From IMG/VR virus record IMGVR_UViG_3300033153_008530, positions 1 to 64,000 of that record: 64,000 nucleotides of DNA. One strand, written 5' to 3'. Under the pieces are notes generated by a model. The model searched no databases, was not told the origin of the DNA, and worked only from the letters and a program-made list of their open reading frames with translations. Positions 805 through 56,810 of this stretch are shown here, in pieces. How positions within the stretch are numbered: the stretch's first letter is position 1; the number at the start of each line of letters is the position of its first letter. Origin of the DNA: a virus. Both the position numbers and the translations under genes were made by a program.

Positions 805-808
805 ATTT

Positions 809-1063: not shown

Positions 1064-1089
1064 ATTTTCTATTTTTATTTACTTAATGT

Positions 1090-3210: not shown

Positions 3211-3695
3211 TAAACGTAATCTTGAGTTATTACACCTCTTATTGTTGTCCCATCATAAACAAGAGTAACAATATCAATTCTATTTGCTATTAATGTGATT
3301 ACTGGAGCAGCACCTGTTGGCCATCCAACTCCAGTCAATGTTGCCACACCATTTGCTGTTGTATTCTGTTTAATATATACAATATTAGTTCCTATAGATA
3401 ACCCAGTAAAATTAATTGTATAAGGACCAGCTCCATCTGGAAGAGTAATACTAAAATAATCTGCTAAAGATAAATTAGCTGTAAAAGTAGTTCCTACAGC
3501 AGGAACAGTAATCAAACTAGATCCTCCAGTTATATCTCTAACTCTTACCAATCTTGTTCTCATTGATGCTTGGGTAGTAGAATGAATATTCCCCACACCC
3601 GTTTGTCCTACCAACAAAAAGTCATTATCCTTTGGGTTACTAATAATCTGTTTGTTTCTAAATAGACCTACAAAGTCTGATATTACATTGCTCAT
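3210..3695 (-). CDS. tail-fibre-associated beta-rich protein
   Basis: Thr/Gly-rich beta-type C-terminal domain (WPTGAAPVIT...DIVTLVYDG); overlaps the next gene by 1 nt. Confidence 0.55.
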   Translation of the reverse strand: MSNVISDFVGLFRNKQIISNPKDNDFLLVGQTGVGNIHSTTQASMRTRLVRVRDITGGSSLITVPAVGTTFTANLSLADYFSITLPDGAGPYTINFTGLSIGTNIVYIKQNTTANGVATLTGVGWPTGAAPVITLIANRIDIVTLVYDGTTIRGVITQDYV

Positions 3696-3712
3696 AATTA
3701 AAATTTTTTATA

Positions 3713-3720
3713 AATATACA
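3713..3720 (-). promoter_or_regulatory. putative late promoter element TGTATATT
   Basis: The same 8-mer precedes four minus-strand gene starts (3713, 3951, 21434, 23107). Confidence 0.45.
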
Positions 3721-3730
3721 TTAAACAAAT

Positions 3731-3937
3731 TCAATTTTGAAATGAAGCCCTAATATCAGCCGCCCACTTTAAAATATACTCATTAACTTCTCTTTCAGTA
3801 TACTCCGTACTTTGAACAAGAGACTCAATCATATCCATAAATTCATTATAGTTAAGATTGCTTCCCTGCATCTCAATTTTATAAATCTTGCCTCCTTGTT
3901 CAAAAGTAAGTCTTGTTATATCAAAGTTTTCTTGCAT
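3731..3937 (-). CDS. hypothetical protein
   Basis: 68-69 aa ORF preceded by TGTATATT. Confidence 0.6.
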   Translation of the reverse strand: MQENFDITRLTFEQGGKIYKIEMQGSNLNYNEFMDMIESLVQSTEYTEREVNEYILKWAADIRASFQN

Positions 3938-3950
3938 CACTTCTATATAT

Positions 3951-3958
3951 AATATACA
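3951..3958 (-). promoter_or_regulatory. putative late promoter element TGTATATT
   Basis: Intergenic copy upstream of the 3731..3937 gene. Confidence 0.45.
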
Positions 3959-3999
3959 AAATTATAAAGTTAAATTCAAAATTTTTCTATATTACATAT

Positions 4000-4188
4000 A
4001 TGAAATTATTACGTTTCTTTCTTATATGGTATTCACAAAACCTGGCTATACCTTTCTGGATCATAGGACACGTACACTTAAGCCTTAATAACTACCATGA
4101 CCTTATAGAAATTACAAGCTCAATAATGATGCATATTGCAGTTGCCGTAGGATTTTATCTTGACTGGACGGACCACAAGAACAACTAA
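4000..4188 (+). CDS. small membrane protein
   Basis: ATG at 4000, MKLLRFFLIWYSQNLAIPFW..., two hydrophobic segments. Confidence 0.6.
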   Translation: MKLLRFFLIWYSQNLAIPFWIIGHVHLSLNNYHDLIEITSSIMMHIAVAVGFYLDWTDHKNN

Positions 4189-4288
4189 CCTATAGAAAAA
4201 AGTTATGCACGTGAAGATTTAGTGGGTCCCTATGATGAAAAAATATTTTTCAAAAAGTTTTGCCCCACCCCCCATTGTTTTGTGAAGG

Positions 4289-4298
4289 CAACTCCTTA
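4289..4298 (+). promoter_or_regulatory. early cassette motif CAACTCCTTA (copy 1), putative virion-RNAP promoter
   Basis: One of eight intergenic copies; starts 42 nt before ATG 4331. Confidence 0.65.
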
Positions 4299-4330
4299 TT
4301 TCAATCAAATAATAACAAAAAACCTCTGCT

Positions 4331-4594
4331 ATGAAAAATAAAGTCTTCTCTCTTCTCTTGTTATCATATGTTATATCATTGATATGTTTGATAACATTCT
4401 TATGTTATGATTACTTCTTTGCTTACAATGTTACATTGTTTATTATGTGTGTACAAGTTCTATTGCTTGGTCTTATATATGCTATTAAGATACGTAAAGA
4501 TAATGAAGTTATAGTACCTGAAGTACTACCACCAACACACATTACACTAGCTGACTGGCATAGGAAGTGGAACAAGAATAGGAAGGCTCAGTAA
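4331..4594 (+). CDS. early two-TM membrane protein
   Basis: Two hydrophobic helices and a basic tail; framed by the motif and a hairpin. Confidence 0.7.
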   Translation: MKNKVFSLLLLSYVISLICLITFLCYDYFFAYNVTLFIMCVQVLLLGLIYAIKIRKDNEVIVPEVLPPTHITLADWHRKWNKNRKAQ

Positions 4595-4613
4595 GCCTTT
4601 CTGTTTTGTGTTA

Positions 4614-4623
4614 CAACTCCTTG
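4614..4623 (+). promoter_or_regulatory. early cassette motif CAACTCCTTG (copy 2)
   Basis: Follows hairpin 4583-4600; heads an ORF-less cassette. Confidence 0.6.
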
Positions 4624-4627
4624 TTAA

Positions 4628-4809
4628 TAGTAGACCTAATTCCTCTTTTATCTCAATGAAGAGATAATTGAACTGATGTGGGAATGGAGGGTAATGGAGG
4701 CATCCATCATATGGAAAAGCAGAGGCTTTCACCTTATTGCTTTGGTGATGTAAGGACCGTAAACAGCTTTAGCAGGCACACTAAGCACCCATTAATTTGG
4801 GTGCTTTTT
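4628..4809 (+). ncRNA. candidate ~180-nt structured non-coding RNA
   Basis: Lies between motif copy 2 and terminator 4783-4809. No credible ORF, raised GC, several hairpins (TTATCTC/GAGATAA, ATTCC/GGAAT, AAAGC/GCTTT, TCACC/GGTGA). Confidence 0.45.
4783..4809 (+). terminator. intrinsic terminator
   Basis: AAGCACCCA-ttaatt-TGGGTGCTT followed by a T run. Confidence 0.75.
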
Positions 4810-4816
4810 ACTAAAC

Positions 4817-4826
4817 CAACTCCTTA
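4817..4826 (+). promoter_or_regulatory. early cassette motif CAACTCCTTA (copy 3)
   Basis: 4817-4856 is 35/40 identical to 5032-5071. Confidence 0.65.
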
Positions 4827-4853
4827 TTATACTTAATCTTTAAACTTTATATT

Positions 4854-5006
4854 ATGACGATAGAAAGCACAGCAACTGCAATCATTGATGGTATTATAAC
4901 TACTATCCAGATCCTACGCTATTCTGATGGCAAACGTTCTAAACGTTTTTATCAGAAAGGTAGACTCACTGATGTAATTATCCTTGAACCTGAGAAGCCT
5001 ACATAG
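4854..5006 (+). CDS. 50-aa early protein
   Basis: Below the track cutoff: MTIESTATAIIDGIITTIQILRYSDGKRSKRFYQKGRLTDVIILEPEKPT; framed by the motif and hairpin 4993-5012. Confidence 0.6.
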   Translation: MTIESTATAIIDGIITTIQILRYSDGKRSKRFYQKGRLTDVIILEPEKPT

Positions 5007-5031
5007 GCTTCTTTCTTTGCATAATGTAAAA

Positions 5032-5041
5032 CAACTCCTTA
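5032..5041 (+). promoter_or_regulatory. early cassette motif CAACTCCTTA (copy 4)
   Basis: Follows hairpin 4993-5012; starts 37 nt before ATG 5069. Confidence 0.65.
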
Positions 5042-5068
5042 TTATTACTAATCCTTAAACTTAATATT

Positions 5069-5434
5069 ATGGCGTACAAATGTAAAATACCTTTTCGTGT
5101 TAGATATGTAGCACCAAGGAGAGGTAAACTTAAAAGCGAAATGCTTTATTACTGTTATTGGTACAATAATAAAGCATTAATGGTTAGAAGAGACTTAGAT
5201 GATAGTTTACCTCTTCTTAGACTTCCAATCTATCACTTTAAACACTATAAACCCAAATTACCACTATCTGCAGACCAACAAAGAGCACAACGCTTTAAAC
5301 TCAAAAGTACAGGTCATAGAAACATTGTAGAATACAATGAAATCAAACTTGCTGAACACGATAAAAAGTATGGCATTAATAGAGCTCAAAAGATAGCAGA
5401 ATATAATAATAAGGGTAAATCAAGAGAGTCTTAG
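5069..5434 (+). CDS. basic early protein of unknown function
   Basis: 121 aa, K/R/Y-rich; framed by the motif and terminator 5422-5446. Confidence 0.7.
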   Translation: MAYKCKIPFRVRYVAPRRGKLKSEMLYYCYWYNNKALMVRRDLDDSLPLLRLPIYHFKHYKPKLPLSADQQRAQRFKLKSTGHRNIVEYNEIKLAEHDKKYGINRAQKIAEYNNKGKSRES

Positions 5435-5460
5435 GGCTCTCTTTTTATTAAAACACAAGA

Positions 5461-5470
5461 CAACTCCCTA
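5461..5470 (+). promoter_or_regulatory. early cassette motif CAACTCCCTA (copy 5)
   Basis: Follows terminator 5422-5446; starts 29 nt before ATG 5490. Confidence 0.6.
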
Positions 5471-5489
5471 CTTAACCTAAATCAATACT

Positions 5490-5747
5490 ATGGCAACAAA
5501 AATCAAATACAATGTAGTGCACGGTAGACCCGTGGGTAAAGATAGTGAAGGTGCAACCATCTATAAAAACGTGCAAGTTGGCGTGGTTATGGAGAAAGAT
5601 GGCAGGTTCCTGCTTAAACTTAATTATCTGCCAGCTGAAGGAGCCTTGTTCTTCAACTTGTGGAAGCCTAAACCAAAGGCAGAACCAAAACCAGAACCTA
5701 AAGCAGAAGTAATTGCTGATGATGGAGATGATGAAGCACCATTCTAA
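5490..5747 (+). CDS. small SSB-like protein with an acidic C-terminal tail
   Basis: Beta-rich core, PK/EP linker, ends in DDGDDEAPF like an SSB C-terminal tip. Confidence 0.55.
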   Translation: MATKIKYNVVHGRPVGKDSEGATIYKNVQVGVVMEKDGRFLLKLNYLPAEGALFFNLWKPKPKAEPKPEPKAEVIADDGDDEAPF

Positions 5748-5753
5748 CAACTT

Positions 5754-5778
5754 GAGCCACTAACGTGGCTCTTTTTTT
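5754..5778 (+). terminator. intrinsic terminator
   Basis: GAGCCAC-taac-GTGGCTC followed by T7. Confidence 0.8.
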
Positions 5779-5782
5779 AACT

Positions 5783-5792
5783 CAACTCCTCA
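5783..5792 (+). promoter_or_regulatory. early cassette motif CAACTCCTCA (copy 6)
   Basis: Directly after the terminator; starts 35 nt before ATG 5818. Confidence 0.6.
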
Positions 5793-5817
5793 TTTTATTT
5801 AATTAAAATTAAATAAT

Positions 5818-5964
5818 ATGTATAAATATAGCATAAATGAAGTGATGCATTTCAGTCCTTCAAGGTCATTAGTAATGGGAATACTGAATACATCCAGTAA
5901 ACCCAAAAAGATTAAACTTCCAAGTAGGAAGAAGAGAAAGTTTAACAAAAGAAGGTCTAAATAG
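5818..5964 (+). CDS. 48-aa highly basic early protein
   Basis: Below the track cutoff: MYKYSINEVMHFSPSRSLVMGILNTSSKPKKIKLPSRKKRKFNKRRSK. Confidence 0.55.
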   Translation: MYKYSINEVMHFSPSRSLVMGILNTSSKPKKIKLPSRKKRKFNKRRSK

Positions 5965-5986
5965 GCCTTCTTAAAATCAATTAACT

Positions 5987-6289
5987 ATGAGTAATATAAA
6001 ATTTAAATTAGACTTCTGGGAACAAAGACAAAAACTACAAGTAACAGTTTGTGAAGAAGAAATATACACAGATAATGATGAAGACTTTACATATGATGAA
6101 CTTATTGCAAACAAACTTCGTCTAGGTTATGTAATAGTATATCAGTATTGGCATGCTGCAGTAGGTCAAGTAACAGTATTTGAACCTCAACGTCTCTTTG
6201 CAGATGAATCACTTCAGAGTGTACTTAATCAAGCACTTGAACCTGAAGATCCACGTGATTATCCAGAACCAACACTTGGTGAAGACTAA
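5987..6289 (+). CDS. acidic early protein of unknown function
   Basis: 100-aa ORF followed by terminator 6292-6315. Confidence 0.7.
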   Translation: MSNIKFKLDFWEQRQKLQVTVCEEEIYTDNDEDFTYDELIANKLRLGYVIVYQYWHAAVGQVTVFEPQRLFADESLQSVLNQALEPEDPRDYPEPTLGED

Positions 6290-6291
6290 CC

Positions 6292-6315
6292 AAAAGGCCT
6301 TAACGGCCTTTTTTT
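6292..6315 (+). terminator. intrinsic terminator
   Basis: AAAAGGCC-ttaac-GGCCTTTT plus further T residues. Confidence 0.8.
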
Positions 6316-6363
6316 GCAACCTTTAGCAGAGTAAGTGACTTAAGAGCAACATTAAGCACATAC

Positions 6364-6383
6364 TTTCTCTTTTCAACTCCTCA
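6364..6383 (+). promoter_or_regulatory. early cassette motif (copy 7) within the 18-bp direct repeat TTTCTCTTTTCAACTCCT
   Basis: 6364-6381 is identical to 6810-6827. Confidence 0.65.
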
Positions 6384-6391
6384 TTTATTTT

Positions 6392-6778
6392 GTACAACAA
6401 CACCAAAAAGGTTTGCAAGCCTTTTTGTGGTCTTTGGCTGAATAATACTTTGTATAGAGGTATAAGGCACATTGATTAGAGGACACTCTGCAGGTATTAG
6501 GAATCTAATATCTGACTGTTTAGCAACAGAATTAAATGGTGAAATTTGTAGGCAACAGATCTAAAGCATCTATAAACGTTAGTAACTTGAATTAGGCGTG
6601 ATACCCATCAAGTGCACATTATCCTGTAGCGGGAATTTCAATGATAGTTCAAGAGCAGTCTTGCGGAGAACTATTGAGAGATATTTTGTAGTTAGTGTGT
6701 TAACGTAGATAAGACCTATATCATCAAATATTTGCAGGGAAAACTTAATCCTGTAAGACCACGTTGTTGTGCTTTTTT
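6392..6778 (+). ncRNA. candidate ~385-nt multi-domain structured non-coding RNA, class not recognised
   Basis: No ORF. The ends pair (6392-6401 with 6763-6772; 6428-6434 with 6755-6761), there are many nested helices, the early motif lies upstream and a T6 run follows. Confidence 0.65.
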
Positions 6779-6809
6779 AGTAAAGTTAAAAGACAACCTT
6801 AAAAAACTA

Positions 6810-6829
6810 TTTCTCTTTTCAACTCCTTA
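6810..6829 (+). promoter_or_regulatory. early cassette motif (copy 8) within the 18-bp direct repeat
   Basis: CAACTCCTTA at 6820, followed by 5'-leader hairpin 6837-6863 and ATG 6893. Confidence 0.65.
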
Positions 6830-6892
6830 CTATACCTGCGTCTATAAAAGTTATAGGTGCGCAACTAATCTAACATAATAAATTATATTACT

Positions 6893-7378
6893 ATGGCAGT
6901 AAATACAAGCCTTAAAGCATCTTGCATAAATACTTATAGCAAGTTAGACAGGAATCAGAATCCTATAGACGTATTCGTCTACAAAATCACTGGTACTAAA
7001 TCAGCGTTAGCACGTTATGAAGAACTCCAAGGAGATAATTATCGTGAAGACGAAGAGACAGGTGACGTCTTGTTCTTCTCTACAAGATATTTTGGAGAGA
7101 GTGGTAACATCATCATTACAGCAAATGATAAAATTGCACCTGATTTAAGTAGCGTTAAGAAACAAGCATCTCTTGTAAATCAGTTTGGAGGTCAAATTGG
7201 TGAGGCTTTAGCACAGAAAATAGCAGATCAACTGCTTGGTGTGAAAGCAACAACACCACCTGCTGAAACTCCTGTTGTGACAGAGAGTGAAGATAAGGCA
7301 GAAGAAGAGATAGTAGATGAGGTGGAAGAAAGTGAAGTTGATGAAACTATAGATGAAGATGCAGATTTTAATGCATAA
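6893..7378 (+). CDS. early protein with a long acidic C-terminal tail
   Basis: 161 aa; D/E-rich tail ending in EDADFNA. Confidence 0.75.
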   Translation: MAVNTSLKASCINTYSKLDRNQNPIDVFVYKITGTKSALARYEELQGDNYREDEETGDVLFFSTRYFGESGNIIITANDKIAPDLSSVKKQASLVNQFGGQIGEALAQKIADQLLGVKATTPPAETPVVTESEDKAEEEIVDEVEESEVDETIDEDADFNA

Positions 7379-7396
7379 TCAGATATTAAATGGAAT

Positions 7397-7422
7397 AAGG
7401 GTGTGTAATAGCACCCTTTTTT
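7397..7422 (+). terminator. intrinsic terminator
   Basis: AAGGGTG...CACCCTT followed by a T run. Confidence 0.7.
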
Positions 7423-7608
7423 GTTTATTTTTTTAGTTTCCAAGTTTATTCATTACATTACTTACTGAATTTCAAAGCATAAATACAAAAAAAGAACTTT
7501 GAGACGCAAAGAGCTTTGATTGAGAAACCCTCTACATACGTACTATAATATAGTCAGTCAATACTAAATTACTATATTATATATAATACTATTATAATAT
7601 ATATAGCT

Positions 7609-8666: not shown

Positions 8667-9146
8667 ATGAAAGATATTATACCCTTTACAAAAGATAATC
8701 TTCCTGTCATACGTATGATGGAAGCTTACGTAACGGAGAATCCTTATTGTGAATGTCATTTCCCAAGTCAACGTAAGTATGATCACTGTAGTCAAAAAAC
8801 TACAAGCATACATTTCTCAAAAGGAAAAGAAAAGAATTTAACCAATGTTTCATCCTGGATGGCAGTATGTACAAGATGTGATAGCATTTTAAATAACCCA
8901 AAGCATGCTAAGTTAGCAGTCAAATATGGTTATACTGATCCAGCACATGTGGTTTACCCTAAGAATAAAGTTATTTCAGCTTCTAAAGCTGCATTAAAAG
9001 ACATAAGTAACCATATTAAAGAAATGGTACAACCTTTTCTTTGGAAAAGAGAAGAGTATGTTAACCCAAAACATTTAAACACAAAAGAAACACGTAATCT
9101 TAATAGAGAATTAGGTGTTCACAAATTAAATATGAAAAACAAATGA
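8667..9146 (+). CDS. Zn-binding, HNH-like protein (possibly degenerate)
   Basis: PYCECH...IHFSKG...WMAVCTRCD parallels the HNH protein at 13464. Confidence 0.5.
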   Translation: MKDIIPFTKDNLPVIRMMEAYVTENPYCECHFPSQRKYDHCSQKTTSIHFSKGKEKNLTNVSSWMAVCTRCDSILNNPKHAKLAVKYGYTDPAHVVYPKNKVISASKAALKDISNHIKEMVQPFLWKREEYVNPKHLNTKETRNLNRELGVHKLNMKNK

Positions 9147-9784
9147 AAAAAAACACTAAAGAATCGGAGATCACATCATTAGAGAAAGTAGCGCTTCAAG
9201 CCACTCTTAAATTAAATAATGAACAATTAGATAATGTATTAACAGTATGTCTTGCAACAGCTGACTTTCGTAAGGCTGTAGAAATATTATGTGGAGTATA
9301 TGTGGAACCAGAAATAGGAACATATGGAATCATAGACTATGCAGGAAATAATTGTGCAGCTAAATTTATATCTTTTAATCCTTTTACAGAAAAGGTAGAA
9401 TATAGTTTTAGAAGACAAATAACTAATAGAGTTTACTGTCCAAATGGTATGGAACAAAAAGAGTTACAAGAGAGAGTTGATGAATTTGCACATATGTCAA
9501 GATCAGAAGTAGAAGAAAAACATGGTGGTTATGACTATCATTTTATTGTAACTGATCCAGATCATATGATGGATGATCATGATGACTGTCGTTTAAGTAC
9601 ATGGATAAATTGTGTTCATGAACATGAGAATCTTGCAATGAAAAAATCAAGACAACTACATGAAGATATAGATTGGAATGGTGAAGAGGATAATACATCT
9701 ATTACACCTGGAAAAATATCACTGTCGCTTGGAGAAACAAAGGCATTAGCTGAACTTAAAACTAAAATGATAAAAAATAAATAA
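9143..9784 (+). CDS. hypothetical protein
   Basis: 213-aa ORF with an ATGA overlap. Confidence 0.7.
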   Translation: MKKNTKESEITSLEKVALQATLKLNNEQLDNVLTVCLATADFRKAVEILCGVYVEPEIGTYGIIDYAGNNCAAKFISFNPFTEKVEYSFRRQITNRVYCPNGMEQKELQERVDEFAHMSRSEVEEKHGGYDYHFIVTDPDHMMDDHDDCRLSTWINCVHEHENLAMKKSRQLHEDIDWNGEEDNTSITPGKISLSLGETKALAELKTKMIKNK

Positions 9785-9787
9785 CCT

Positions 9788-10150
9788 ATGAGATTAACTG
9801 TACACCTTGATAAACCATTTTTTGTTACTAAAGAGCAAAAAATATGGAAAGTGAAACTTGAGAATGGCAAAGAAGACACTGTCAGAAAACCTAAAAAGCC
9901 TAAGTGTATCGTGAATACACTTAGCTTCAAGGATCTTAGAAATAAAGACCAAATAAAAGAGAAACTTGCTTATGTAAAGAGTCATTATGGCATCAGAATA
10001 GCTAAAGAGACCACTCATAATTGGAAAAGGGGCCAACAAATGTATGAGGTTAAAGGAGTATCCCCAGATATTCAGTTAAATCTATCGCAAACATTAAAAG
10101 ACTTCTGCAAAAGAATGTATGATGAGGCAATAGAAAGAGCAAGTAAGTAG
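9788..10150 (+). CDS. hypothetical basic protein
   Basis: 120-aa ORF in the operon. Confidence 0.65.
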   Translation: MRLTVHLDKPFFVTKEQKIWKVKLENGKEDTVRKPKKPKCIVNTLSFKDLRNKDQIKEKLAYVKSHYGIRIAKETTHNWKRGQQMYEVKGVSPDIQLNLSQTLKDFCKRMYDEAIERASK

Positions 10151-10489: not shown

Positions 10490-10494
10490 TTATT

Positions 10495-11942: not shown

Positions 11943-11967
11943 TTAATAACTTTTCTAAAACTATTAT

Positions 11968-46055: not shown

Positions 46056-49000
46056 TTATGCTAAACATTTGTTTTTTAATTCTTGAATTTCATAATCACT
46101 AATAGGTTGATCTTTTTGGATTATGGCTCTTATACTGGTAGATCTTAATGATCCAGGATTAATATAACCAAATTTATCATAAAGTTTACTAGATAAGTGA
46201 ACATATGTTTTTCTTGATTTTACATTATCTAACAATTCTTTACCATATCCAGTTTTAATTAAGGCAATAGAATTGTTTCCCTTCATTAAATTAGCTATCT
46301 TATCAATAGCATTATCAATTAAGATCTTGTTTTCTTCTAATGTTTCATCAGTCATCATCTTTCCATCGTTTATTAATGGGATACCAAGACTGTTATCAAA
46401 CTCACTTAATGATTCATCTCTTCCTTTTTTTCCTCTCTCATTATATATAAAGGTTACTCCACCACTCTGAGTTGCTAAAACTTCATATTTACTTGATGAT
46501 GTTTGTGCATCATATATATAAACATCTTTAGTTTTATACTTTTTTAAGGGTATTCCTTCTTTAACTGGTACTTTCTGCTCAGATGTCATGGTACTTGCCA
46601 AAGTTTTATCAATCATATAATTTTTAGAGCGCATGTTTAATGATTTAGTTATTGCCCTATTCATTGTTATCATTCTATTTGTATAAAGTGTAAGAATCTC
46701 TTCATTTAGATTCTTAATATATGATTCATAAGGACCTTTAAGAAGTAATAATATATTACGTTGATCAATAATCCTAGTCATTGAGAGTGGGCTCTTTGTA
46801 TTTAACCCGGATTGTAAGAAGGCGTAGTAGTTAAATCTCTGAAAGAAGTTAGTTATTTTTAATTTATCCTCTGGATCATCTATTTTTATTTCACTTGGAT
46901 TACTAAGTTCTAGTAGATTCTCATGATAAACCTCTACTGTATCTGGGTCTAAAACAGTTTCTTTCAGTTTCAAGTTCTTTATTCTTTCACCAGGCTTTGC
47001 TTTTGATTGGATAATACTTTCCATTAATGGATAATCTCTTGATAATGAGGGATATTTAGCTTTAATATCCATAAACTGATTAACCATACTATTATGTCCA
47101 TAGAACATATTTCTAATATTAAGAGTATTGTCAAGAGCTTTGTCACGTAGTATCTCTTCGTAAGTGAGTAATTTCATTCTCTTCTCATACATGTTATCAG
47201 TTTCTCCTTCTTGTCTTTCTGTTTCAATAGAATCAACTTGATTCATGTTTCTCTTAAGTTTTTCTTTAAATTCTTCTTTTTTACTTTCTTCTTTAAAAGA
47301 AATAATACTTCTTAAGTATTCTCTTTCATATATAAATTTGTAAAATTCTTTTTCACTTAAAACATCTCTTGTTTTAAAAGCATCTGGAGTGAGAAGAGCA
47401 TGTCCTGATAACACCCATTCTTTCTTTACACCTTTTCCTTCTTTGTTAATCTTCTGCACCCATCTAACTCTTTTATTTTGGTCTGCATATGTTTTGTTCT
47501 TAAACATATCATTAAGAGCTTCTTTGTTAACATATAATACATTATCTTTTACATAAGCGCCTACAGTTAATACATCTACTTCTTCAACTCCAATCTTATC
47601 ATTAACTGTTAGACTTCTATATTCTTTTGTATTCTTATTAAAACCTTTTATTGAATTTTGGAATATAAAGCTTACAAGATCATTTTTCCATGCAGCAACA
47701 AACTTCTCTTGTTCATTCTGACCATAGGTTGTTCTTACTGCACCTTTTCCAGCGGCTGTATCCAAAAAGTCATATAAGAATTTATTAACTAATTCATGAT
47801 TACGAAGTGGGAAATATTTACTCCATACCTCTTCTTGAAAGTCAGGTACTGAGGCAAATGAAGATATTGGACTTTCTGTAAGCAATCTATCTAAAGGTCC
47901 TCTTGGAAACAATCCATATTTGTTAATTGTTCTCATGTTTCTTCTTCTCTCCTGAACATTATATAAAGAGGCTGCGGGATCTGTATCTAAATTTGTATTA
48001 AGTTTTACATCACGTACAGAACCAGCTATTAATTCTAACTCAATAAAGTGTAAGAATGCATCTCGTGCTGTATCATTAACAGTTCCATTTAATGCAATCT
48101 CTTTAAGTTTAGCAGGATTAAAGTTTGATGTACGTCTCTGAGCTGTAAGAAGTATGTTTGGTACACTAGGTGTATTCGTTGCATCTAACCCTAATGTGGA
48201 ATAATTATCAAATCCATTACGTGCAATTACATTTACCTTTGCTTGATATCTAGTATACTGAGTTTCATCAGGGGCCATTCCTAGAGGCATTGAAAATGAG
48301 CTACTCATAATTCTCTGTTCCTTTACGTACTCTTTTATAAGAGGATTAGAAAGGAACATAACTGCGTCAGTCAATGATACACCTGATTCAACTAATAATA
48401 ATAATATAGGTGTTAACTCAGTATTACCCTGAAGATGAAAAATCCAAGGATCTTTTTCAACATCAACCCAACCATTTATTAATTGTTCTAGTATTTGAGC
48501 TATTTCAACACCGTCTACATTATTTATATTAGATAAAGATATTACGTCATTCTTACCAACTTTAAAAGTATTATGATCTAATAAGATTCTTGTATTAAAC
48601 TCACTCTTGTCTCTCATAAAAGTTGGCATTAAATACATACCTACTCTATTAAATAATGCATTATAAGTATTTGCAATTGCTCCTTGTCCTAATGTCTTTT
48701 TACCAACGTTAAAGGCCTCATGAATATCTGTATTAAATCCTATTTCTAATATTTTTGTATGACTAATGTTTTCTGCTTCTTCACCACGTATCTGATCTAC
48801 AACATCCATTGCAAGATGATTTGAGTTTGGACGAACAAGACTTATAAAGTTATGTGGTAATTCAAGAATTTCTTTCATCTTATACATTATCTCATTCTCC
48901 ACTCCTCTAACACCTTCAGTAGATAAAATTACTTCACCTTCTTTATTTCTTCTAATATTAGGCATCATTATAGTTAACTTGTCTATGTCAAAATCAGAAC

Positions 49001-52000
49001 CTGATTTAGAAACAATTTCTGATGGTGGAATAATTATGTTACCTGCGGATTCTGGTAAAAACTCATATACTTCCATGAACTCTGCGGAGTTAAGACCCTG
49101 AACTGGAATACGCACACCCACCATGGTGATTAGTTTCCTATTATCATCTCTATTTAACCACTGTTCATCTTTGATCATTTCATTAAGCCTAAGTCTTGTT
49201 TTTATTCTTTCACCATCATTATGTGTTAATCCTAATAATTTAATAAAACCACCTTGTAAAGCTATTTTAACTTTCATAGCAGATATGGTCTTACGTATAT
49301 TACCTTCTGCGTCAAACATTGAGTATGTAGGTAGATCACTTGATCCCCACTTTGCAATTTCTGCATCTGTAGGATTAGTGAAATTTCTATCAGCGGGGGT
49401 GGCCTCATTGTTTGTAAATAGAGCAGTTGATATCTGAACTAACATTTGTCCATTAACTTTTTGTCTAACAAGCTGTTTATTAACTACTGCAAAAAGAATA
49501 TTCTCAATACTCTCTGCATTAACTGACATTCCAAATGGAAATACTAAGTCTCCTTTATCATCAACTTCTAATACATCAAGTTCAGATGCTGTTATATCTT
49601 TTCTTTCAAGATTTGGTATGATAACTTTATTTAGAAGATCCTGAAGATTTCCTTCTAATTTACCTTTTTCATTATATGACCATCCTGCATCTTTAAGTAA
49701 TTGATCTTTCTTATACTTCATTAACTTATCTAATAACTCCTCGTATTCTTTATATTTAGAAAAGTAATCAGATTCATCCTTCATTACTTGTAAACCCTTT
49801 TTCTCAATCTTCTTCCATTCAACACGTCTCTTTGTAAGGCTTGTACCGGGCATAAAGTCAATTGGTACGCCACCTTCAACTAAACCAGTTTCAATTAGTT
49901 TTCTAAGCTGAGTAGAGAATGTTACTTTAGTTTTATGCTTTGAATCAATATCTAATTGATCTTTTAGAAATTCCAAAAACATAACATTAGGTGTATATTG
50001 ATCTGCAGATTCAACAGACTTAAAGATCCTTTTTATGGGGTCTGCATAAACTTCATCATAAGTTCCATCTTTTGTAATAGTACTTATTTTTGAACCTGAT
50101 TCAAATAATGCATAATCAAATTTTTGATCAACTAAACTATCATGAAGATCTTGTAATCTAGTATTCTCTATAACGTTTGGTATAAGAGGCATTAAAGAGA
50201 ACTTATGACCAGCTATAACTGGTAAACCATCTGTTTTTAAGGGCCCAAAATATTGTACTTTCTTTGGTGGAAAAAATTCTGTTACAAGTCTTGGATCAAC
50301 ATACTCACCAGCAACAATTTTTTTATAAAGTTGTTCTTGTGTATTACTCCATTTTCCTATTGCAAACTGATATATCCTATATGCATCAAATGTAATCCAA
50401 CCTTGACCATCACCTTCGTTCATTTCTTTGTAAGGTTTTATAGCATGGTAAACCGCATTCTCTAATTTTTTACCTTTTAATTCTGCTACAGTGCTATAAT
50501 AATCTCTAAACGCTTTTTCATATTCTTTAACATATACTGAAGATACTATATGATCCTGAAATACTGCTGACTTAAATGTACCATCAAAGTCTTTATCTTT
50601 TATCCCTCTTTTTATACTGTAATCACCCTTCATATTATTTCTAATATAATTGATAATTGCCTGATCAGTTCTAGGGAAACGTCCTGTTGATGCAACCATT
50701 TTGTTTCTCTTAAAGAACTCCATTCCATTCTTATATTGGGCAGGATCTCCATAAAAGAAAATTAACGTTTCAAAATCACGTATCCATTTATTATAAACAA
50801 AAGACTCAAATATTGCTTCTCTTATTTGTGGAGTTGTTGCACTGTGATTCTGATAAGATATTTGTTTTATCAATGAATCAGATATATAGTTAAGATCTCT
50901 ATATCTTTCAGTAACATCTTTTACTTGACTATTAAAATACTTAGTTATTTCATCATGTAATCTATTATATAAATCCTGATTAGTTTTTAATTCCTCAAGT
51001 AGTTCAACATTAAGATCTTTTAGTTCTTTCTTTAAAGGATTTGAAAGAATCTTGTCAAATATTGAAAACTCTTTAGCTCTTTTATTATAACCAGGTACAT
51101 TTTTTACTTGATCTGCTTTATTAATTCTAGTTAATTCAGCTTGTATATAAGGAATAATTATTTCTACTGCCTTATCTTCCCCAGTATTTGTAAAGAAATC
51201 TTTAGTGTCAACATATAAATGCTTATCACTTCCTAATGTGTGAGCTTCAGATATACCTGCAGAATAAGCGCTCCCAGCAGAAGCATGTCTTAATAACTCA
51301 GGAGATCCTGAGACTGGTGTACCACTTAACAGTGTATAATGAAGATCTGTGATTAGTTTTGTATGCTTGTCTGCCTCTACAGTAGTTGAGCTATATCCAA
51401 TATCTGTAATAAGATTATCTACTACCATCTGGTTTCCAGATAGATTATTTAAATCTAGTGTAACACCTTTTCTTTTAATACCACCATTTTCAAAATCAAA
51501 TAAAGAATTTAACCATTGTGATGTGCTTTTATTTTGCCCGTTTTCATCCTGATAAATATACGTCCATGGATTACGTTTTGATGAAAGATAAGACATAAAA
51601 GGTTTATTAATTAACTCATTAAAGGACTTTGAGTCATTAATTTCATTGATAATCACACTTAGCGAACTTTGAAGTGAATATTCATATTGGATATCACCTA
51701 ATGCATTTGTAACAGCTGCAGAAGAATATTTATCTGAGTATTTTAACTGTAATAAAGCTAACTCTTTAAGATTCCCTTTATGACCTTTATGTACAACTCT
51801 CCCTTTTTCAATTATATCATATTCTAAAGCTTCAATAATATTTCTTACTTTAGTACCTTTTTCATTAAAATATTTTAATCTTTTTACTATTTCCTCAACA
51901 AACACTCTGTATCTACTCTTACTATTAATATTTTGTTTTAATTTTATATTTCTTGTATCAAGATCAATTCCAATATCTCTTAAGAATACAAACGGATTAC

Positions 52001-55000
52001 CTGATGGAGATGCAAATTTTTTCATGACAGAATTTATGTCAAGATAATTTCCTTCTGTATCTGGTTTTATGTGTGGAGACTCTTTTGTTGTTGCAAAAGA
52101 ATTCATCCAATCAAATCTTATTCTTCTCCAATTTGCAGAGGCATTCCCAATTTTATCCGTGTATGACCATGCATTTTCTGTATCTCCAAATGCACCTTCC
52201 CTTGTTAAAAGTGTTCTATCCATTGTGTATTGGACCAATGGAATTCTTGTTCTGTTAAACGCTTCAACAAATTTATTCCATAACATGGCATCATAGTATG
52301 TCTCATGACCAGGAGTTTCATCACCTTTTTCATTTATAACAACAGGTTTACCAAGGCGCTCTATAAGTTGTTTATAAACTGGAAAGTCTTGAGAATCCTC
52401 TTCTAATAGATCATATATTTTATTTGAGTCTCTTACTCCCTGTAATAGAGATAATGTATGTTCCCAAGTTACTTTAAAGTTTGAAAGCTTTTTTACACCA
52501 AGTTTGTTATACACACCGTCAGGATCTTGTGGTGTCACTTCAAAGAGAGTCCTTAAAAGATAAAGCACCTCATTTGAAGCTAAATCTTTTACTGAAAGTT
52601 CATTACCTTTTCTGTCATGACCTTTAATTTTGTTAGATGTCTCCTCTTCAGAAAATTCTGTAATGAATTTATCCTCAAGATTTAAGATTTCAGTTCGTTT
52701 TTGATGAAAGGCAATAACACCTTTAGTTTGTTTTTTAGTTATGAATGATTCAAAGTCACCAAAATTATCAATTGCAAATGTCAATAGATCTATACTATTC
52801 TTTGTTACTATATCCTGTGGCTTCTTTTCTTCTTTTGTTCTAAGTTCATTTAGTCTTTCTATGACATATTCATATGCAGTATTTAATCCTGTCTTACTTG
52901 ATAATAATTTGCTTATAGCTGCACGTCCTTTCCCGCTTACAATAAACTCTCTATTAGCTTTATCTATAAGTTCTCCAATTAATGAATCAACTGTTTCACT
53001 GATTAAAATAGAATCAGTAAAAGATATTTGTTCGTCATTAAGTCCTTTTATACCACCCTTATCAAGCTTTGCAAACATCATATTATTTAGAGATGGCGTA
53101 TAATCATTTATGTCACCAATATATAATTTGTCATAAAGATCTTTAACTCCTTCAACACTTTGTTGATCAATAACAACTTGGTCAAGAGTTGAATTTCCAA
53201 ATAGTTGTTTTAGAAAGTCTAATATCTTTTGGAAAATAGTCTTGGCAGCTGGCGTATTTATTTTACGCTTGCCGTCTGAAAGTACATATAACCTAAAATC
53301 TTCAGCTAAATATTCTTCTAACATATAATCAGAAGCCTTTTTAAAACTGATTTTATCACCTAAATAATTTGTAAATGTTCCACTTCTCTTCTTTAAACTA
53401 TCATATAGATCTCTTTTTTGTTCAACTGTAAGATACATTTGACTAAATCCGTGCCATGCCTCATGATAGAGATCTGTATAATTAGAACCTTTGTATAATA
53501 TTATTCCGTTTTTAGTAAATTCTGCAAAGTTTTTGGAATTGACTATATTGAACGCAGCCTGGTATGGAAGATTTTCTCGCATTGGATGGTTGTTATACCA
53601 CTCTTCAGCATCTCTTATTTGTTTTTTAGTAGCTGCATTATTAATATTTTTGTTTTTATCTAACTTAAGAAATCTATTAAGTGCACTGTCCCTGTTATTG
53701 TCAGTGGGATTTTTCGTGACTGCATTGTAATCTTTAAGAATATTTTGAGTTAACTCATCTTCTAATTCTTGTTCTTCTAATTTAATTACTACAGCGGAGC
53801 TCTTTTTAATATTTGGGATTTCTCTTCTCTTTATGAAATCATCTGCATTATCTTTATTACCAAATCTACCTTCAATTCTTTTATTACTTGAGGGAACCTG
53901 GATTACATAATCAGCATGCTCAATAAAATTATACGTACCAGTCAAAATAACTTTACCTTCTTCTTTTAGATCTTTTATTTGCCCTAAGACATCATCTTGT
54001 ACAAGCTTGTAACTTACACCGCTATCTTTTTTCCAATATTCTAAAATAAAATTCTTATCCTTTTTCACTTTAAAATCAGGATCTCTTCTTTTTATTTCAG
54101 CTTTTAGTAGTTCATCCGCATCAATAACACCTTCCATTGTTGGGACAAAAGTAGTCTTACCTGCTCCAGGAGTTGCATAGATTAATTTACCCGTGTATTT
54201 TGATTTAGATTTTTTACCAGCTTTTGGAGTTGAAATAGAAGGATAAGTTGCTGTGTTCTCTAATACTTCACCAGGTTTATATTCAGTGTATATATCATAT
54301 ATGGATTTCTTTTTTAATGGTATAGTTAAAGAACCATCAGAAGATTTTGGAGATTCAGCTGTTGAATATTCTCTCTTACCAATCCCCTTATTTCTTATTA
54401 ATTTAGTTGTAACTGGAAATATTTTAAGTGTATCTAATACTATTCCTGTACGTTGTCTGAATAACTCAGCGTAGGCATTTAGTTGAATCTCGTCTTGAGC
54501 TTGATAATTATATTGTTTGGTTTTATAGGCAATACGTCTATTAAGACCAGATGTTTTAAGATCTACAAGATGAAAGGTTTTATTCTTTTCATGATATAAT
54601 AACATGTCAATTGTACCAGCATAATTAACATTTCCAAGTGTCCCCCATAGGGTTGGTATCTCAGTATATATTCTATAATTCTTCTTAAGTCTTTTCTTTG
54701 CCTCAGCATATACATCATAGAGTTCACCTAAAAACACATCTGAAAATACCTCAGTATTTTTTCTTTCAGGGTGTTCAACATACATTTTTTTAAAAGCCTT
54801 ATATGATGTTATCTGATCAGATAATGTAGCTCTAAATAAATCATCAGCAATTGTACCTCTTGTACGTGCTTGTCCTTCATCTCTAGGAGCATCAGCTGGA
54901 TACGGAATAAGATCTCCTTTAAAGGCGCTTACTCTTCTAAATGATTCTCTAGCTTCATCTATATAAAATTCAGAATCTTTTTTATTTACAGTTAATTTCT

Positions 55001-56810
55001 TTTCTGAAAGTGGTTTAAGTGCTTCAGTTGGATTATCTACTTTGCTTATGATCAGATCATCTGGAGTGCTCTCAATTATATTCTTTTTCTTTCTTCCAAT
55101 TTGTTCTAACGCCTTATTGGACAAAGCATATGTAAAATATGCATTTAACTTAACAATCTTCTTTTCTTTATTTATAGCTGTTTTAGCTTCAAAATTATCT
55201 GTAATCCATAGATTATACTCCATTTCTGTTAGAGTAACAATATTATCCTCAACACTAAAGCTATTAAACCTCTGATTGATAAACTTTTTATTTATGTTCA
55301 GTCTTGAGGCAGATGTATTGTTTTTTCTTTCTTCTTGAAGATATTGTATAATCTTATCTCTTACTGCTTCAGGATTATCTGATTTACTTATATTTTCCTT
55401 TTTAAACTTAAATATAATTGATTTACCTACCTGATCTCTTCTAAAATATATACCATCATACTTTGGGAAATATATAGAGGATAATAGTTCAAATCTCTGT
55501 TGAGGTCTTAATTCTTCTAAAGTTCCTCTTTTGGTTTTAATGTTAAGAGGCATTGTCATCATACTTGCCAAGTTAAAGATCTGATCATCAATCATCTTTG
55601 GTCTGTCAACATATATAGGATCAGTACTATTTTCTTCATAGTCAAAATATGTGAAACCTTTATTTTTTCCAAAAGAATTATCAAGTGCTGGATATGGAAG
55701 GAAACCAAACTCTCCAAAATCTATTTCAGAAAGTTTTGTGTTTCTTTCATATGATACAGGACGATATCCTAAACTGCTACTTTCTAATATTGATGCAGTT
55801 ACAGTTTCTCCATTACTTACAGATCTTTGTATTGCTACAATATCTTCTAAACCTTGATATTGAAGTTTCTTAACATGATCAGTTTGCTTTTTAGTTGGTG
55901 TATCACCATACATTTTTCTTGCAACCTCATTAACTTGCTGAATATCTGATCTCTCCAAAAATAATTTACCATCACTTTTTCTTATAGGCGTTCTCATTTT
56001 AATAGGAATGACATAACCATTTTCTTCATTGGTTATTTTTAACTCATCATTAAAATATATAGGATGTCCTTCACTATCAGTAATTATCCATACAACACCT
56101 TTTTTTGTTTTTTCAGGATTTTTTGTAATATACTGTTGTTCACCTTGGGTCCAATTTTTAAGAGGAACATCAGCTGCTAAAACTGCAGTTATATAATAAC
56201 CCATCTTATCCCCCGTGTCATCACTACTAATTCTTATTTTACTTATAATATCTCTTATAACAGCATATCTACGTTTTGAAGCTGGATCTTTACTTGGTAT
56301 ATTAGTAAATTTTCCTTTTTCTGTTTCAGGAGCTTCATTACCTGTTGTTGTATTTGAAGATATTGGTCTTGCTTCAAAATTTCCTTCAATGTCCAGCTCT
56401 TCATTGGTAAGATCTTTTCTCTCCTCTGGATCAAGCATATTTAATATTCTCAATCTTGTTACAATAATCTCAAGTTCTTTAATATCTACTTCAGGATATA
56501 CATACTTAAATACATTATCAAGATTTTCAAATGACTCTGTCATCTCAACTAACTCACTGTACTTATTACCAACGTATTTACCTATGGTATTATCATTTGC
56601 TGCCAGCTTCTTTACAAAATCTGGAACCAATTGAACATATGCAAGAACTTTTGCCTTTTCTTTTTTAAGGTCATTAGATGCAATGTTCTCTATATGATTA
56701 ATGATGTCATTAAGGTTATATTCAACCTCCTCATTCATCATATTTTTAAGTTTTCTTGCAGTAATAGACAATATTGCTTCTATATGTTTATCTGGTAATC
56801 TACATTTCAT
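46056..56810 (-). CDS. virion-packaged single-chain RNA polymerase (phi14:2 gp66-like) with accessory N-terminal domains
   Basis: GVRIPVQG...SGSDFDIDK (48981-48995), DGQGWIT, WVDVEKDP. Confidence 0.9.
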   Translation of the reverse strand: MKCRLPDKHIEAILSITARKLKNMMNEEVEYNLNDIINHIENIASNDLKKEKAKVLAYVQLVPDFVKKLAANDNTIGKYVGNKYSELVEMTESFENLDNVFKYVYPEVDIKELEIIVTRLRILNMLDPEERKDLTNEELDIEGNFEARPISSNTTTGNEAPETEKGKFTNIPSKDPASKRRYAVIRDIISKIRISSDDTGDKMGYYITAVLAADVPLKNWTQGEQQYITKNPEKTKKGVVWIITDSEGHPIYFNDELKITNEENGYVIPIKMRTPIRKSDGKLFLERSDIQQVNEVARKMYGDTPTKKQTDHVKKLQYQGLEDIVAIQRSVSNGETVTASILESSSLGYRPVSYERNTKLSEIDFGEFGFLPYPALDNSFGKNKGFTYFDYEENSTDPIYVDRPKMIDDQIFNLASMMTMPLNIKTKRGTLEELRPQQRFELLSSIYFPKYDGIYFRRDQVGKSIIFKFKKENISKSDNPEAVRDKIIQYLQEERKNNTSASRLNINKKFINQRFNSFSVEDNIVTLTEMEYNLWITDNFEAKTAINKEKKIVKLNAYFTYALSNKALEQIGRKKKNIIESTPDDLIISKVDNPTEALKPLSEKKLTVNKKDSEFYIDEARESFRRVSAFKGDLIPYPADAPRDEGQARTRGTIADDLFRATLSDQITSYKAFKKMYVEHPERKNTEVFSDVFLGELYDVYAEAKKRLKKNYRIYTEIPTLWGTLGNVNYAGTIDMLLYHEKNKTFHLVDLKTSGLNRRIAYKTKQYNYQAQDEIQLNAYAELFRQRTGIVLDTLKIFPVTTKLIRNKGIGKREYSTAESPKSSDGSLTIPLKKKSIYDIYTEYKPGEVLENTATYPSISTPKAGKKSKSKYTGKLIYATPGAGKTTFVPTMEGVIDADELLKAEIKRRDPDFKVKKDKNFILEYWKKDSGVSYKLVQDDVLGQIKDLKEEGKVILTGTYNFIEHADYVIQVPSSNKRIEGRFGNKDNADDFIKRREIPNIKKSSAVVIKLEEQELEDELTQNILKDYNAVTKNPTDNNRDSALNRFLKLDKNKNINNAATKKQIRDAEEWYNNHPMRENLPYQAAFNIVNSKNFAEFTKNGIILYKGSNYTDLYHEAWHGFSQMYLTVEQKRDLYDSLKKRSGTFTNYLGDKISFKKASDYMLEEYLAEDFRLYVLSDGKRKINTPAAKTIFQKILDFLKQLFGNSTLDQVVIDQQSVEGVKDLYDKLYIGDINDYTPSLNNMMFAKLDKGGIKGLNDEQISFTDSILISETVDSLIGELIDKANREFIVSGKGRAAISKLLSSKTGLNTAYEYVIERLNELRTKEEKKPQDIVTKNSIDLLTFAIDNFGDFESFITKKQTKGVIAFHQKRTEILNLEDKFITEFSEEETSNKIKGHDRKGNELSVKDLASNEVLYLLRTLFEVTPQDPDGVYNKLGVKKLSNFKVTWEHTLSLLQGVRDSNKIYDLLEEDSQDFPVYKQLIERLGKPVVINEKGDETPGHETYYDAMLWNKFVEAFNRTRIPLVQYTMDRTLLTREGAFGDTENAWSYTDKIGNASANWRRIRFDWMNSFATTKESPHIKPDTEGNYLDINSVMKKFASPSGNPFVFLRDIGIDLDTRNIKLKQNINSKSRYRVFVEEIVKRLKYFNEKGTKVRNIIEALEYDIIEKGRVVHKGHKGNLKELALLQLKYSDKYSSAAVTNALGDIQYEYSLQSSLSVIINEINDSKSFNELINKPFMSYLSSKRNPWTYIYQDENGQNKSTSQWLNSLFDFENGGIKRKGVTLDLNNLSGNQMVVDNLITDIGYSSTTVEADKHTKLITDLHYTLLSGTPVSGSPELLRHASAGSAYSAGISEAHTLGSDKHLYVDTKDFFTNTGEDKAVEIIIPYIQAELTRINKADQVKNVPGYNKRAKEFSIFDKILSNPLKKELKDLNVELLEELKTNQDLYNRLHDEITKYFNSQVKDVTERYRDLNYISDSLIKQISYQNHSATTPQIREAIFESFVYNKWIRDFETLIFFYGDPAQYKNGMEFFKRNKMVASTGRFPRTDQAIINYIRNNMKGDYSIKRGIKDKDFDGTFKSAVFQDHIVSSVYVKEYEKAFRDYYSTVAELKGKKLENAVYHAIKPYKEMNEGDGQGWITFDAYRIYQFAIGKWSNTQEQLYKKIVAGEYVDPRLVTEFFPPKKVQYFGPLKTDGLPVIAGHKFSLMPLIPNVIENTRLQDLHDSLVDQKFDYALFESGSKISTITKDGTYDEVYADPIKRIFKSVESADQYTPNVMFLEFLKDQLDIDSKHKTKVTFSTQLRKLIETGLVEGGVPIDFMPGTSLTKRRVEWKKIEKKGLQVMKDESDYFSKYKEYEELLDKLMKYKKDQLLKDAGWSYNEKGKLEGNLQDLLNKVIIPNLERKDITASELDVLEVDDKGDLVFPFGMSVNAESIENILFAVVNKQLVRQKVNGQMLVQISTALFTNNEATPADRNFTNPTDAEIAKWGSSDLPTYSMFDAEGNIRKTISAMKVKIALQGGFIKLLGLTHNDGERIKTRLRLNEMIKDEQWLNRDDNRKLITMVGVRIPVQGLNSAEFMEVYEFLPESAGNIIIPPSEIVSKSGSDFDIDKLTIMMPNIRRNKEGEVILSTEGVRGVENEIMYKMKEILELPHNFISLVRPNSNHLAMDVVDQIRGEEAENISHTKILEIGFNTDIHEAFNVGKKTLGQGAIANTYNALFNRVGMYLMPTFMRDKSEFNTRILLDHNTFKVGKNDVISLSNINNVDGVEIAQILEQLINGWVDVEKDPWIFHLQGNTELTPILLLLVESGVSLTDAVMFLSNPLIKEYVKEQRIMSSSFSMPLGMAPDETQYTRYQAKVNVIARNGFDNYSTLGLDATNTPSVPNILLTAQRRTSNFNPAKLKEIALNGTVNDTARDAFLHFIELELIAGSVRDVKLNTNLDTDPAASLYNVQERRRNMRTINKYGLFPRGPLDRLLTESPISSFASVPDFQEEVWSKYFPLRNHELVNKFLYDFLDTAAGKGAVRTTYGQNEQEKFVAAWKNDLVSFIFQNSIKGFNKNTKEYRSLTVNDKIGVEEVDVLTVGAYVKDNVLYVNKEALNDMFKNKTYADQNKRVRWVQKINKEGKGVKKEWVLSGHALLTPDAFKTRDVLSEKEFYKFIYEREYLRSIISFKEESKKEEFKEKLKRNMNQVDSIETERQEGETDNMYEKRMKLLTYEEILRDKALDNTLNIRNMFYGHNSMVNQFMDIKAKYPSLSRDYPLMESIIQSKAKPGERIKNLKLKETVLDPDTVEVYHENLLELSNPSEIKIDDPEDKLKITNFFQRFNYYAFLQSGLNTKSPLSMTRIIDQRNILLLLKGPYESYIKNLNEEILTLYTNRMITMNRAITKSLNMRSKNYMIDKTLASTMTSEQKVPVKEGIPLKKYKTKDVYIYDAQTSSSKYEVLATQSGGVTFIYNERGKKGRDESLSEFDNSLGIPLINDGKMMTDETLEENKILIDNAIDKIANLMKGNNSIALIKTGYGKELLDNVKSRKTYVHLSSKLYDKFGYINPGSLRSTSIRAIIQKDQPISDYEIQELKNKCLA

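Follow-up and report, generated by a model that had tools for sequence, protein, structure and literature searches.

The motif array and its units

The stretch of viral DNA analysed here, 64,000 nucleotides (nt) long and hereafter called the window, covers positions 1 to 64,000 of the IMG/VR record IMGVR_UViG_3300033153_008530 and contains an array of eight short units, each headed by the sequence CAACTCCYYR, which we consider here as a candidate early promoter. The record is a linear fragment of 87,011 bp (72% complete), and its map of open reading frames (ORFs) has a crAss-like layout: minus-strand tail-fibre and structural genes at 1-3937, a divergent junction at ~3940-4290, a plus-strand module at 4000-36656 that includes the helicase, and giant minus-strand ORFs at 36794-86893. 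The array starts directly after the junction and heads the rightward module, so the motif lies only on the sense strand and at the first genes after the junction, as expected of promoters served by a virion RNA polymerase (RNAP). By helicase, the closest GenBank phages are crAss-like phages of Flavobacterium, Cellulophaga and Bacteroides (~27% identity), and parts of the stretch occur in public sequencing runs from marine sediment, vent and seawater (16 studies); these relatives and the marine runs suggest that the host is a marine member of the Bacteroidota.

All eight matches to CAACTCCYYR in the window are exact, non-coding and on the plus strand, and they fall within ~2.5 kb (4289-6829), bearing out a preliminary description of the stretch that had called them intergenic and confined to one strand. 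Only 0.47 matches were expected, and the largest number in 100 shuffled sequences was 3. In the full 87-kb record there is a ninth match, at 72770, which lies within a minus-strand ORF. The 7-mer CAACTCC alone occurs 19 times in the window on both strands, against 3.97 expected, and its hits outside the array are scattered, in agreement with the earlier remark that there is no second cluster (the hit quoted there at 37277 is at 37276). Relaxing CAACTCCYYR by one mismatch added background only, and CAACTCC(T) was the only enriched intergenic 7-mer or 8-mer in the whole record that is not AT-rich. The spacings between successive copies (325, 203, 215, 429, 322, 591 and 446 bp) track the gene borders.

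The units share one plan, in which the motif is followed by a short AT-rich leader, then by a small ORF, an ORF pair or a structured RNA, and finally by a hairpin/T-tract terminator (Table 1). The payload comprises seven small ORFs (one each in units 1, 3, 4, 5 and 8, and two in unit 6) and the RNAs of units 2 and 7. No function could be assigned to any cassette protein from PHROGs or Pfam, and scans with Rfam and for tRNAs gave no hit. The unit 7 RNA (399 nt) folds at -106 kcal/mol with a z score of -3.3, its closing helix pairing 6392-6401 with the region just before the T6 run; the fold of unit 2 has a z score of -2.1. The leader hairpin of unit 8 shows three compensatory pairs among three distinct sequences from this phage and its relatives.

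Table 1. Positions of the motif copies, terminators and putative polymerase gene in the window, with one motif of a related contig
Feature	Position	Strand	Remarks
Motif copy 1, CAACTCCTTA	4289..4298	+	Heads ORF 4331-4594 (87 amino acids (aa), hydrophobic); no terminator before
Terminator, unit 1 (hairpin and T-rich tail)	4583..4608	+	-19.3 kcal/mol (48-nt fold)
Motif copy 2, CAACTCCTTG	4614..4623	+	Heads ORF-less unit of ~185 nt (~4624-4809), likely a small RNA
Terminator, unit 2	4783..4809	+	-15.2 kcal/mol
Motif copy 3	4817..4826	+	Heads ORF 4854-5006 (50 aa)
Terminator, unit 3	4992..5019	+	-14.3 kcal/mol
Motif copy 4	5032..5041	+	Heads ORF 5069-5434 (121 aa)
Terminator, unit 4	5422..5448	+	
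Motif copy 5, CAACTCCCTA	5461..5470	+	Heads ORF 5490-5747 (85 aa); identical in contig L017
Terminator, unit 5	5754..5778	+	
Motif copy 6, CAACTCCTCA	5783..5792	+	Heads ORFs 5818-5964 (48 aa, basic) and 5987-6289 (100 aa)
Terminator, unit 6	6292..6319	+	
Motif copy 7, CAACTCCTCA	6374..6383	+	Heads structured ORF-less RNA (~6384-6778), ending in T6
Motif copy 8, CAACTCCTTA	6820..6829	+	Heads leader hairpin 6838-6860 and ORF 6893-7378 (161 aa, acidic tail)
Terminator, unit 8 (array end)	7397..7436	+	No motif after
3584-aa ORF, gp66-type two-barrel RNAP core	46056..56810	-	6VR4 chain A, E 1.7e-24, three aligned stretches
Motif in contig L019, orthologue of copy 8, CAACTATGGA	2282		

The distances on the two sides of the motif differ in character. 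Downstream they are tight: five copies stand 42, 37, 37, 29 and 35 nt before an ATG, within the 29-42 nt given earlier, with 73 nt in copy 8, and at copies 7 and 8 the RNA helices begin 18 nt after the motif start, where 17-18 nt had been read. Upstream they are loose, from ~4 to ~55 nt. Seven copies had been described as following a hairpin or U-tract; this applies directly to copies 2-6, which stand ~4-13 nt after a strong hairpin and T-tract, and only at a remove to copies 7 and 8, which are separated from the preceding terminator or T6 run by ~55 and ~42 nt. The shared leaders that had been pointed out proved exact, with 35 of 40 nt identical between the 4817 and 5032 copies and 18 of 18 between 6364-6381 and 6810-6827.

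Retention and change of the motif in related phages

Only two clusters among 5.8 billion are related to the 161-aa protein, and a metagenome scan with their alignment yielded three contigs of 1.5-3 kb, here L017, L018 and L019. The first (contig PVBE011809914.1) is related at strain level and keeps copies 5-8 exactly. L018, with 65% aa identity, has a single motif, CAACTCCTGA at 258, which is the orthologue of copy 8 and retains CAACTCC in changed flanks. To its left the sequence corresponds to the left flank of copy 7 and to its right to the leader of copy 8, indicating that the RNA cassette at 6384-6810 is missing and that the joint bears one motif in place of the two of this phage.

In L019 (52% aa identity), CAACTAT replaces CAACTCC at the orthologues of cassettes 1, 2, 6 and 8 and is present at two further heads. 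Its copy 1 orthologue (at 185) comes straight after the junction, and no plus-strand ORF precedes it. CAACTCC itself occurs once in the contig, with a leader similar to that of copy 4, and a doubtful CAACACC is also present. With L019 this phage shares the small-RNA cassette at 85% and the cassette of the 48-aa ORF at 88%, whereas the unit 7 RNA cassette is absent as a whole from both L018 and L019, indicating that it is an accessory module. The motif is therefore present in related phages, where the preliminary description had proposed to look for it: it is kept in L017 and L018 while the flanks diverge, and it is changed in concert in L019. The same two-base change from CC to AT at four separate orthologous sites argues for a reader that acts in trans and is encoded by the phage, not by the host.

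We aligned 17 motif-anchored copies from this phage and two relatives, including the doubtful CAACACC variant at 2268 of L019. Information was found only at positions 0-12, which read CAACT, then CC or AT, then T-N-R-T-T-T, with a purine at position 10 in 16 of the 17 copies. No second conserved block at sigma spacing was present in this alignment.

Close relatives are otherwise rare. Neither blastn with 3900-7300 nor tblastn with the 161-aa protein found anything among GenBank phages and IMG/VR, scans of IMG/VR with the tail-fibre protein, the 161-aa protein, the polymerase and the 48-aa peptide found nothing near, and scans of genome contigs were likewise empty. The pattern CAACTAT-N190-220-CAACTAT gave at least 116 chance matches in IMG/VR, mostly Thr-Thr-Ile codons of tail fibres, and no relative. 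Two helicase relatives, L009 and L010 (55%), carry no CAACTCC array; the TTGTAGA repeated in them appears to be the -33 part of host-type promoters, and one copy has a downstream match to TAnnTTTG.

A probable start signal and its candidate reader

The window holds nine plus-strand units and eight junctions, so counting alone cannot tell a function at the heads of the units from one at their tails. A function at the heads, as a start signal, is favoured by the tight downstream distances, by copy 1 of L019 with no ORF upstream, and by the last unit, which ends without a motif.

Several familiar kinds of promoter were compared with the motif and rejected. The primary-sigma promoter of the Bacteroidota (TAnnTTTG at -7 with TTTG at -33) does not describe the array, as the preliminary description had noted: no intergenic plus-strand TAnnTTTG lies between 4189 and 8600, and the sequence is found at 3964 on the minus strand and at 8608 and 11658 on the plus strand. 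A bipartite sigma-70 promoter is incompatible with information confined to positions 0-12, and a scan with the sigma-70 consensus gave 28 sites where 23.8 were expected, and none of these is associated with the motif. Sigma-54 and extracytoplasmic function (ECF) look-alikes were rejected for want of a second conserved block. Hairpin promoters of the N4 type were rejected because the DNA forms no hairpin at the motif on either strand, folds of -12 to +28 giving 0 to -2.4 kcal/mol with no hairpin in common.

Because every unit carries the motif, the very first included, its reader has to be in place ahead of all phage gene expression, which leaves the host RNAP or a protein of the virion. The non-sigma architecture and the difference in motif between sister phages favour a phage protein. 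The preliminary description had named the phage's own RNAP at 46056..56810, and this ORF is indeed a homologue of phi14:2 gp66 (6VR4) that keeps the catalytic GSDFDIDK with its DFDID motif. In phi14:2, gp66 is carried in the virion and makes rifampicin-resistant early transcripts (bioRxiv 10.1101/2020.03.07.982082). By analogy with phi14:2 and crAss001, the 3584-aa polymerase is probably packaged, and it may then be the reader of the motif.

We therefore interpret CAACTCC(YYR)TTT, with moderate confidence, as a compact, single-block and phage-specific early promoter that heads eight insulated transcription units and is most likely read by the virion RNAP. The virion-delivered polymerase would bind the motif right after DNA entry, start transcription between the kept purine at motif position 10 and the onset of the RNA helix at position 18, and stop at the hairpin/T-tract of each unit.

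A number of observations weigh against this interpretation. The phage is uncultured, none of the runs listed as containing the stretch was an RNA run, and the promoter role, the start sites and the early timing are predictions from sequence. The L017-L019 contigs (1.5-3 kb) are too short to show polymerases, and a link between motif type and polymerase sequence is a conjecture. The concerted change in L019 could have arisen by gene conversion among leaders, and its mixed motifs suggest either that the reader tolerates variation or that some copies are imports or inactive. In phi14:2, no common motif was seen before the gp66 transcripts, and in vitro gp66 transcribed only single-stranded or denatured DNA (bioRxiv 10.1101/2020.03.07.982082); in the first 14 kb at the left end of the phi14:2 genome we found no comparable array. 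We found no description in the literature of a promoter for an injected crAss-like RNAP, phi14:2 being the subject of the only experimental study that we found.

The motif might instead be a promoter read by the host RNAP, either with an alternative sigma factor or redirected by a small DNA-binding factor from the virion or the host, which we consider unlikely. The CAAC of the motif faintly recalls the AAC of ECF-type -35 boxes, but no conserved second element follows at -10 spacing, and the -33/-7 consensus of the Bacteroidota is missing. The terminators are of the ordinary hairpin/T-tract kind that bacterial RNAP obeys, and the early transcripts of phi14:2, made without a common motif, suggest that a gp66-type enzyme may not need one. 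A host sigma factor is nevertheless not favoured by the difference between CC and AT at four orthologous sites in close relatives, and any factor of this kind would have to be in place before phage gene expression, given the motif on the first unit.

A role in RNA or at transcript ends, as a processing site, a 5'-leader element or part of a polymerase-specific signal for termination or re-initiation just behind each hairpin, appears less probable still. The close succession of terminator and motif at five copies and the ambiguity of nine units with eight junctions are compatible with it, and there is a model in the Thermus phage P23-45, where a conserved 26-nt motif occurs at seven terminators near the left end (PMC10770324). 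Yet no unit that could need termination precedes copy 1 of L019, no motif closes the last unit, and it is the distance to the upstream hairpin that is loose and the distance to the downstream ATG or helix that is tight. Where the motif follows a T-tract, moreover, it lies outside the terminated transcript. Its likeness to an anti-Shine-Dalgarno sequence (CUCCUU) disappears in the CAACTAT variant. Because of this loss of CUCC, and because two of the units have no ORF, a Shine-Dalgarno role on the minus strand or an anti-Shine-Dalgarno role in RNA was rejected.

Cassette exchange, known systems and neighbouring elements

The preliminary description had suggested that shared leaders allow cassettes to be shuffled and that cassette content be compared between strains. 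We compared Logan contigs of four marine runs (X1-X4) with 3900-7400; whole cassettes or ORFs differ in X1 and X4, as they do in L017 and L018. In run X1, a different sequence of 286 letters takes the place of ORF 5069-5434, the breaks falling at the ATG (5071) and at the terminator (5423), so that leader and terminator stay. Run X4 diverges immediately behind the ATG at 5987 and is of the same type as L017; both carry an extra 85-aa ORF (L017 731-988) with its own terminator, inserted at the repeated leader 5968-5989. A 122-nt replacement of 6268-6309, ending in a strong terminator, is found at 1311-1432 of L017. Run X4 has no change at 4614-4718 against 4 changes in the 25 nt before, and across strains no listed variant fell inside a motif copy against ~1.4 expected, a difference that is not significant.

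Most of the break points lie at ATGs, leaders and terminators and not in the 7-mer. Exchange also proceeds by way of leaders and terminators that lack CAACTCC, indicating that the motif is not the only recombination arm, so the suggested shuffling is upheld and its arms extend beyond the shared CAACTCC leaders. Because leaders, motifs and terminators are shared among units, they would double as homology arms for the gain, loss and swap of cassettes, and the break points support whole regulatory boxes (leader, motif and terminator), and not the 7-mer by itself, as the probable arms.

That strains differ by whole cassettes or ORFs, and that L018 has one motif exactly where this phage has two flanking an RNA cassette, might also suggest that the motif has no role in expression and is left behind by mobile cassettes as a scar, or serves as their homology arm, being a recombination site that travels with the cassettes. 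We regard this as highly improbable, because a scar would be expected at the break points, most of which lie elsewhere, and would not preserve just 13 bases between flanks that have diverged completely, hold one orientation and a fixed distance to the ATG, or change in concert at four loci. Least credible of all is an array of iterons, or of other protein-binding sites at an origin of replication or a packaging site close to the genome junction, which one-orientation direct repeats next to a divergent junction and a G/C-rich tract might suggest; it was rejected because the spacing (203-591 bp) follows gene borders without tight helical phasing and because a terminator and a start codon accompany every copy.

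The reading of the motif as a promoter of the virion polymerase has a close parallel in P23-45, in which the pre-early promoters of the virion two-barrel RNAP, gp96, share a conserved motif that precedes 14 start sites at the genome end; ONT-cappable-seq located the starts and ChIP-seq the enzyme, and the motif persists in relatives that have the enzyme (PMC10770324). Common to both systems is a short motif repeated at one genome end, here a presumed one, and assigned, here tentatively, to a virion two-barrel RNAP related to crAss gp66. They differ in that the P23-45 starts were mapped, whereas ours are predicted, and in that its motif is AT-rich and its terminators have the special 26-nt motif, in contrast to CAACTCC and ordinary hairpin/T-tracts here. 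With phi14:2, this phage shares a homologous polymerase, a rightward, here putatively early module at the genome end and non-coding RNAs that would likewise be early, two of which are abundant in phi14:2 (bioRxiv 10.1101/2020.03.07.982082) and parallel the two RNA cassettes of the array; unlike phi14:2, it has a sharp motif on every unit.

The PeSL cassettes of T4-type phages place a promoter and a stem-loop terminator between small accessory genes, and recombination between them produces insertions, deletions and replacements in close relatives (PMC2839356). The eight units resemble them as putative promoter-terminator units between small accessory genes, and the same kind of cassette recombination explains the insertions, deletions and replacements in X1, X4, L017 and L018. 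PeSL promoters are sigma-70-like and read by host RNAP, whereas the motif here is not sigma-like. The signal would join two known kinds of element, virion-polymerase promoters and PeSL-like cassettes.

Two further comparisons concern the form of the promoter. The early promoters P1-P3 of phage N4 are read by an injected giant polymerase at the genome end that enters first; they are DNA hairpins with a short stem (5-7 bp) and a 3-nt loop, and the enzyme is T7-like, not two-barrel. No such hairpin occurs at the CAACTCC motifs on either strand. In the T7 group (T7, T3 and SP6), the promoter is a single block reaching to the start site, and a few of its positions change in concert across all copies in a genome, together with the polymerase. 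The CC and AT classes of motif look the same, but the enzyme family is another one, and their covariation with the polymerase is hypothetical.

More tentatively, and with rather less confidence than we place in the early promoter itself, CAACT(CC/AT)TNR may be a double-stranded promoter of the Crassvirales virion RNAP in which positions 6-7 are co-evolving specificity determinants and whose promoter-terminator boxes carry the exchange of host-takeover genes and small RNAs between marine crAss-like phages. If so, it would be the first defined promoter for the giant two-barrel enzyme family, with CC and AT classes in sister phages. A sharp signal of 7-13 bases bears on how an injected crAss-like polymerase finds its genes, and the natural CC and AT variants offer templates for transcription assays in vitro and for structural studies of how a two-barrel single-chain RNAP recognises its promoter. 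If the promoter reading is true, the motif marks which small genes and RNAs are made first, and the early region of these abundant crAss-like phages evolves by swapping promoter-terminator boxes.

The unit 2 RNA has an occurrence of its own beyond the array. A 61-nt core (window 4720-4780) is 96.7% identical in the otherwise unrelated IMG/VR record IMGVR_UViG_3300008267_000557 (G004; L022 ~11742-11802), where one hairpin shows a compensatory change, CACC/GGTG against CTCC/GGAG, around the loop TTATTGCTTT. Several contigs of run X2 share 4719-4835 in different contexts, and in L019 the RNA lies at 448-620. It looks like a small RNA shared among marine phages.

Around the junction, a G/C-rich tract of C or G runs stands just before the first cassette at 4262-4277 of the window, at 161-178 of L019 and at ~23300-23420 of L022, in DNA that is otherwise 30% GC in all three phages; it could mark a genome terminus or the first-entering end. 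A plus-strand ORF of 62 aa (4000-4188) precedes motif copy 1 without a motif of its own. It is missing in L019, and the sequence 4036-4082 is found in other contexts in runs X2 and X3, indicating a variable element at the junction. In the region 3938-3999, ahead of the first leftward gene (3937), the minus strand carries TAATTTTG at 3964 with TTTG upstream, a candidate Bacteroidota-type promoter that faces away from the array.

Beyond the end of the array, the non-coding stretch 7470-7608 (L018 ~900-1060) is better kept than the adjoining genes. Its elements, in order, are a hairpin of variable loop (CTTTG...CAAAG), GCTTTGATTGAGAAAC and an extended AT-rich tract that reaches the ATG at 7609, and the stretch may be the switch to the next transcription class. 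An 11/12 match to sigma-70 at 7520-7549 was rejected as a promoter because its -10 element is not kept in L018.

Two other phages show comparable layouts or repeats. The G004 contig, with terminase, portal, capsid and tail-fibre genes and then a junction, has the same layout and its own motif, GTATYATATCTCAT, which occurs three times in L022 (G004:C1) at ~23450-23870. Two of these copies follow terminator T-tracts, and the three lead into an ORF, the shared small RNA and a second ORF; the contig stops at these motif-headed cassettes. In IMGVR_UViG_3300030328_003618 (G003, L013-L014), a complete 70.7-kb distant crAss-like phage, CCCTTTG(TGCTTTG) occurs eight times between genes on the plus strand and never on the other, at 8950-12965, 25274 and 29483. 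Several of these copies apparently form the 3' arm of a hairpin, CAAAGCACAAAGG...CCTTTGTGCTTTG, ~25-30 nt before ATGs, and the element could be a hairpin-type start or stop signal.

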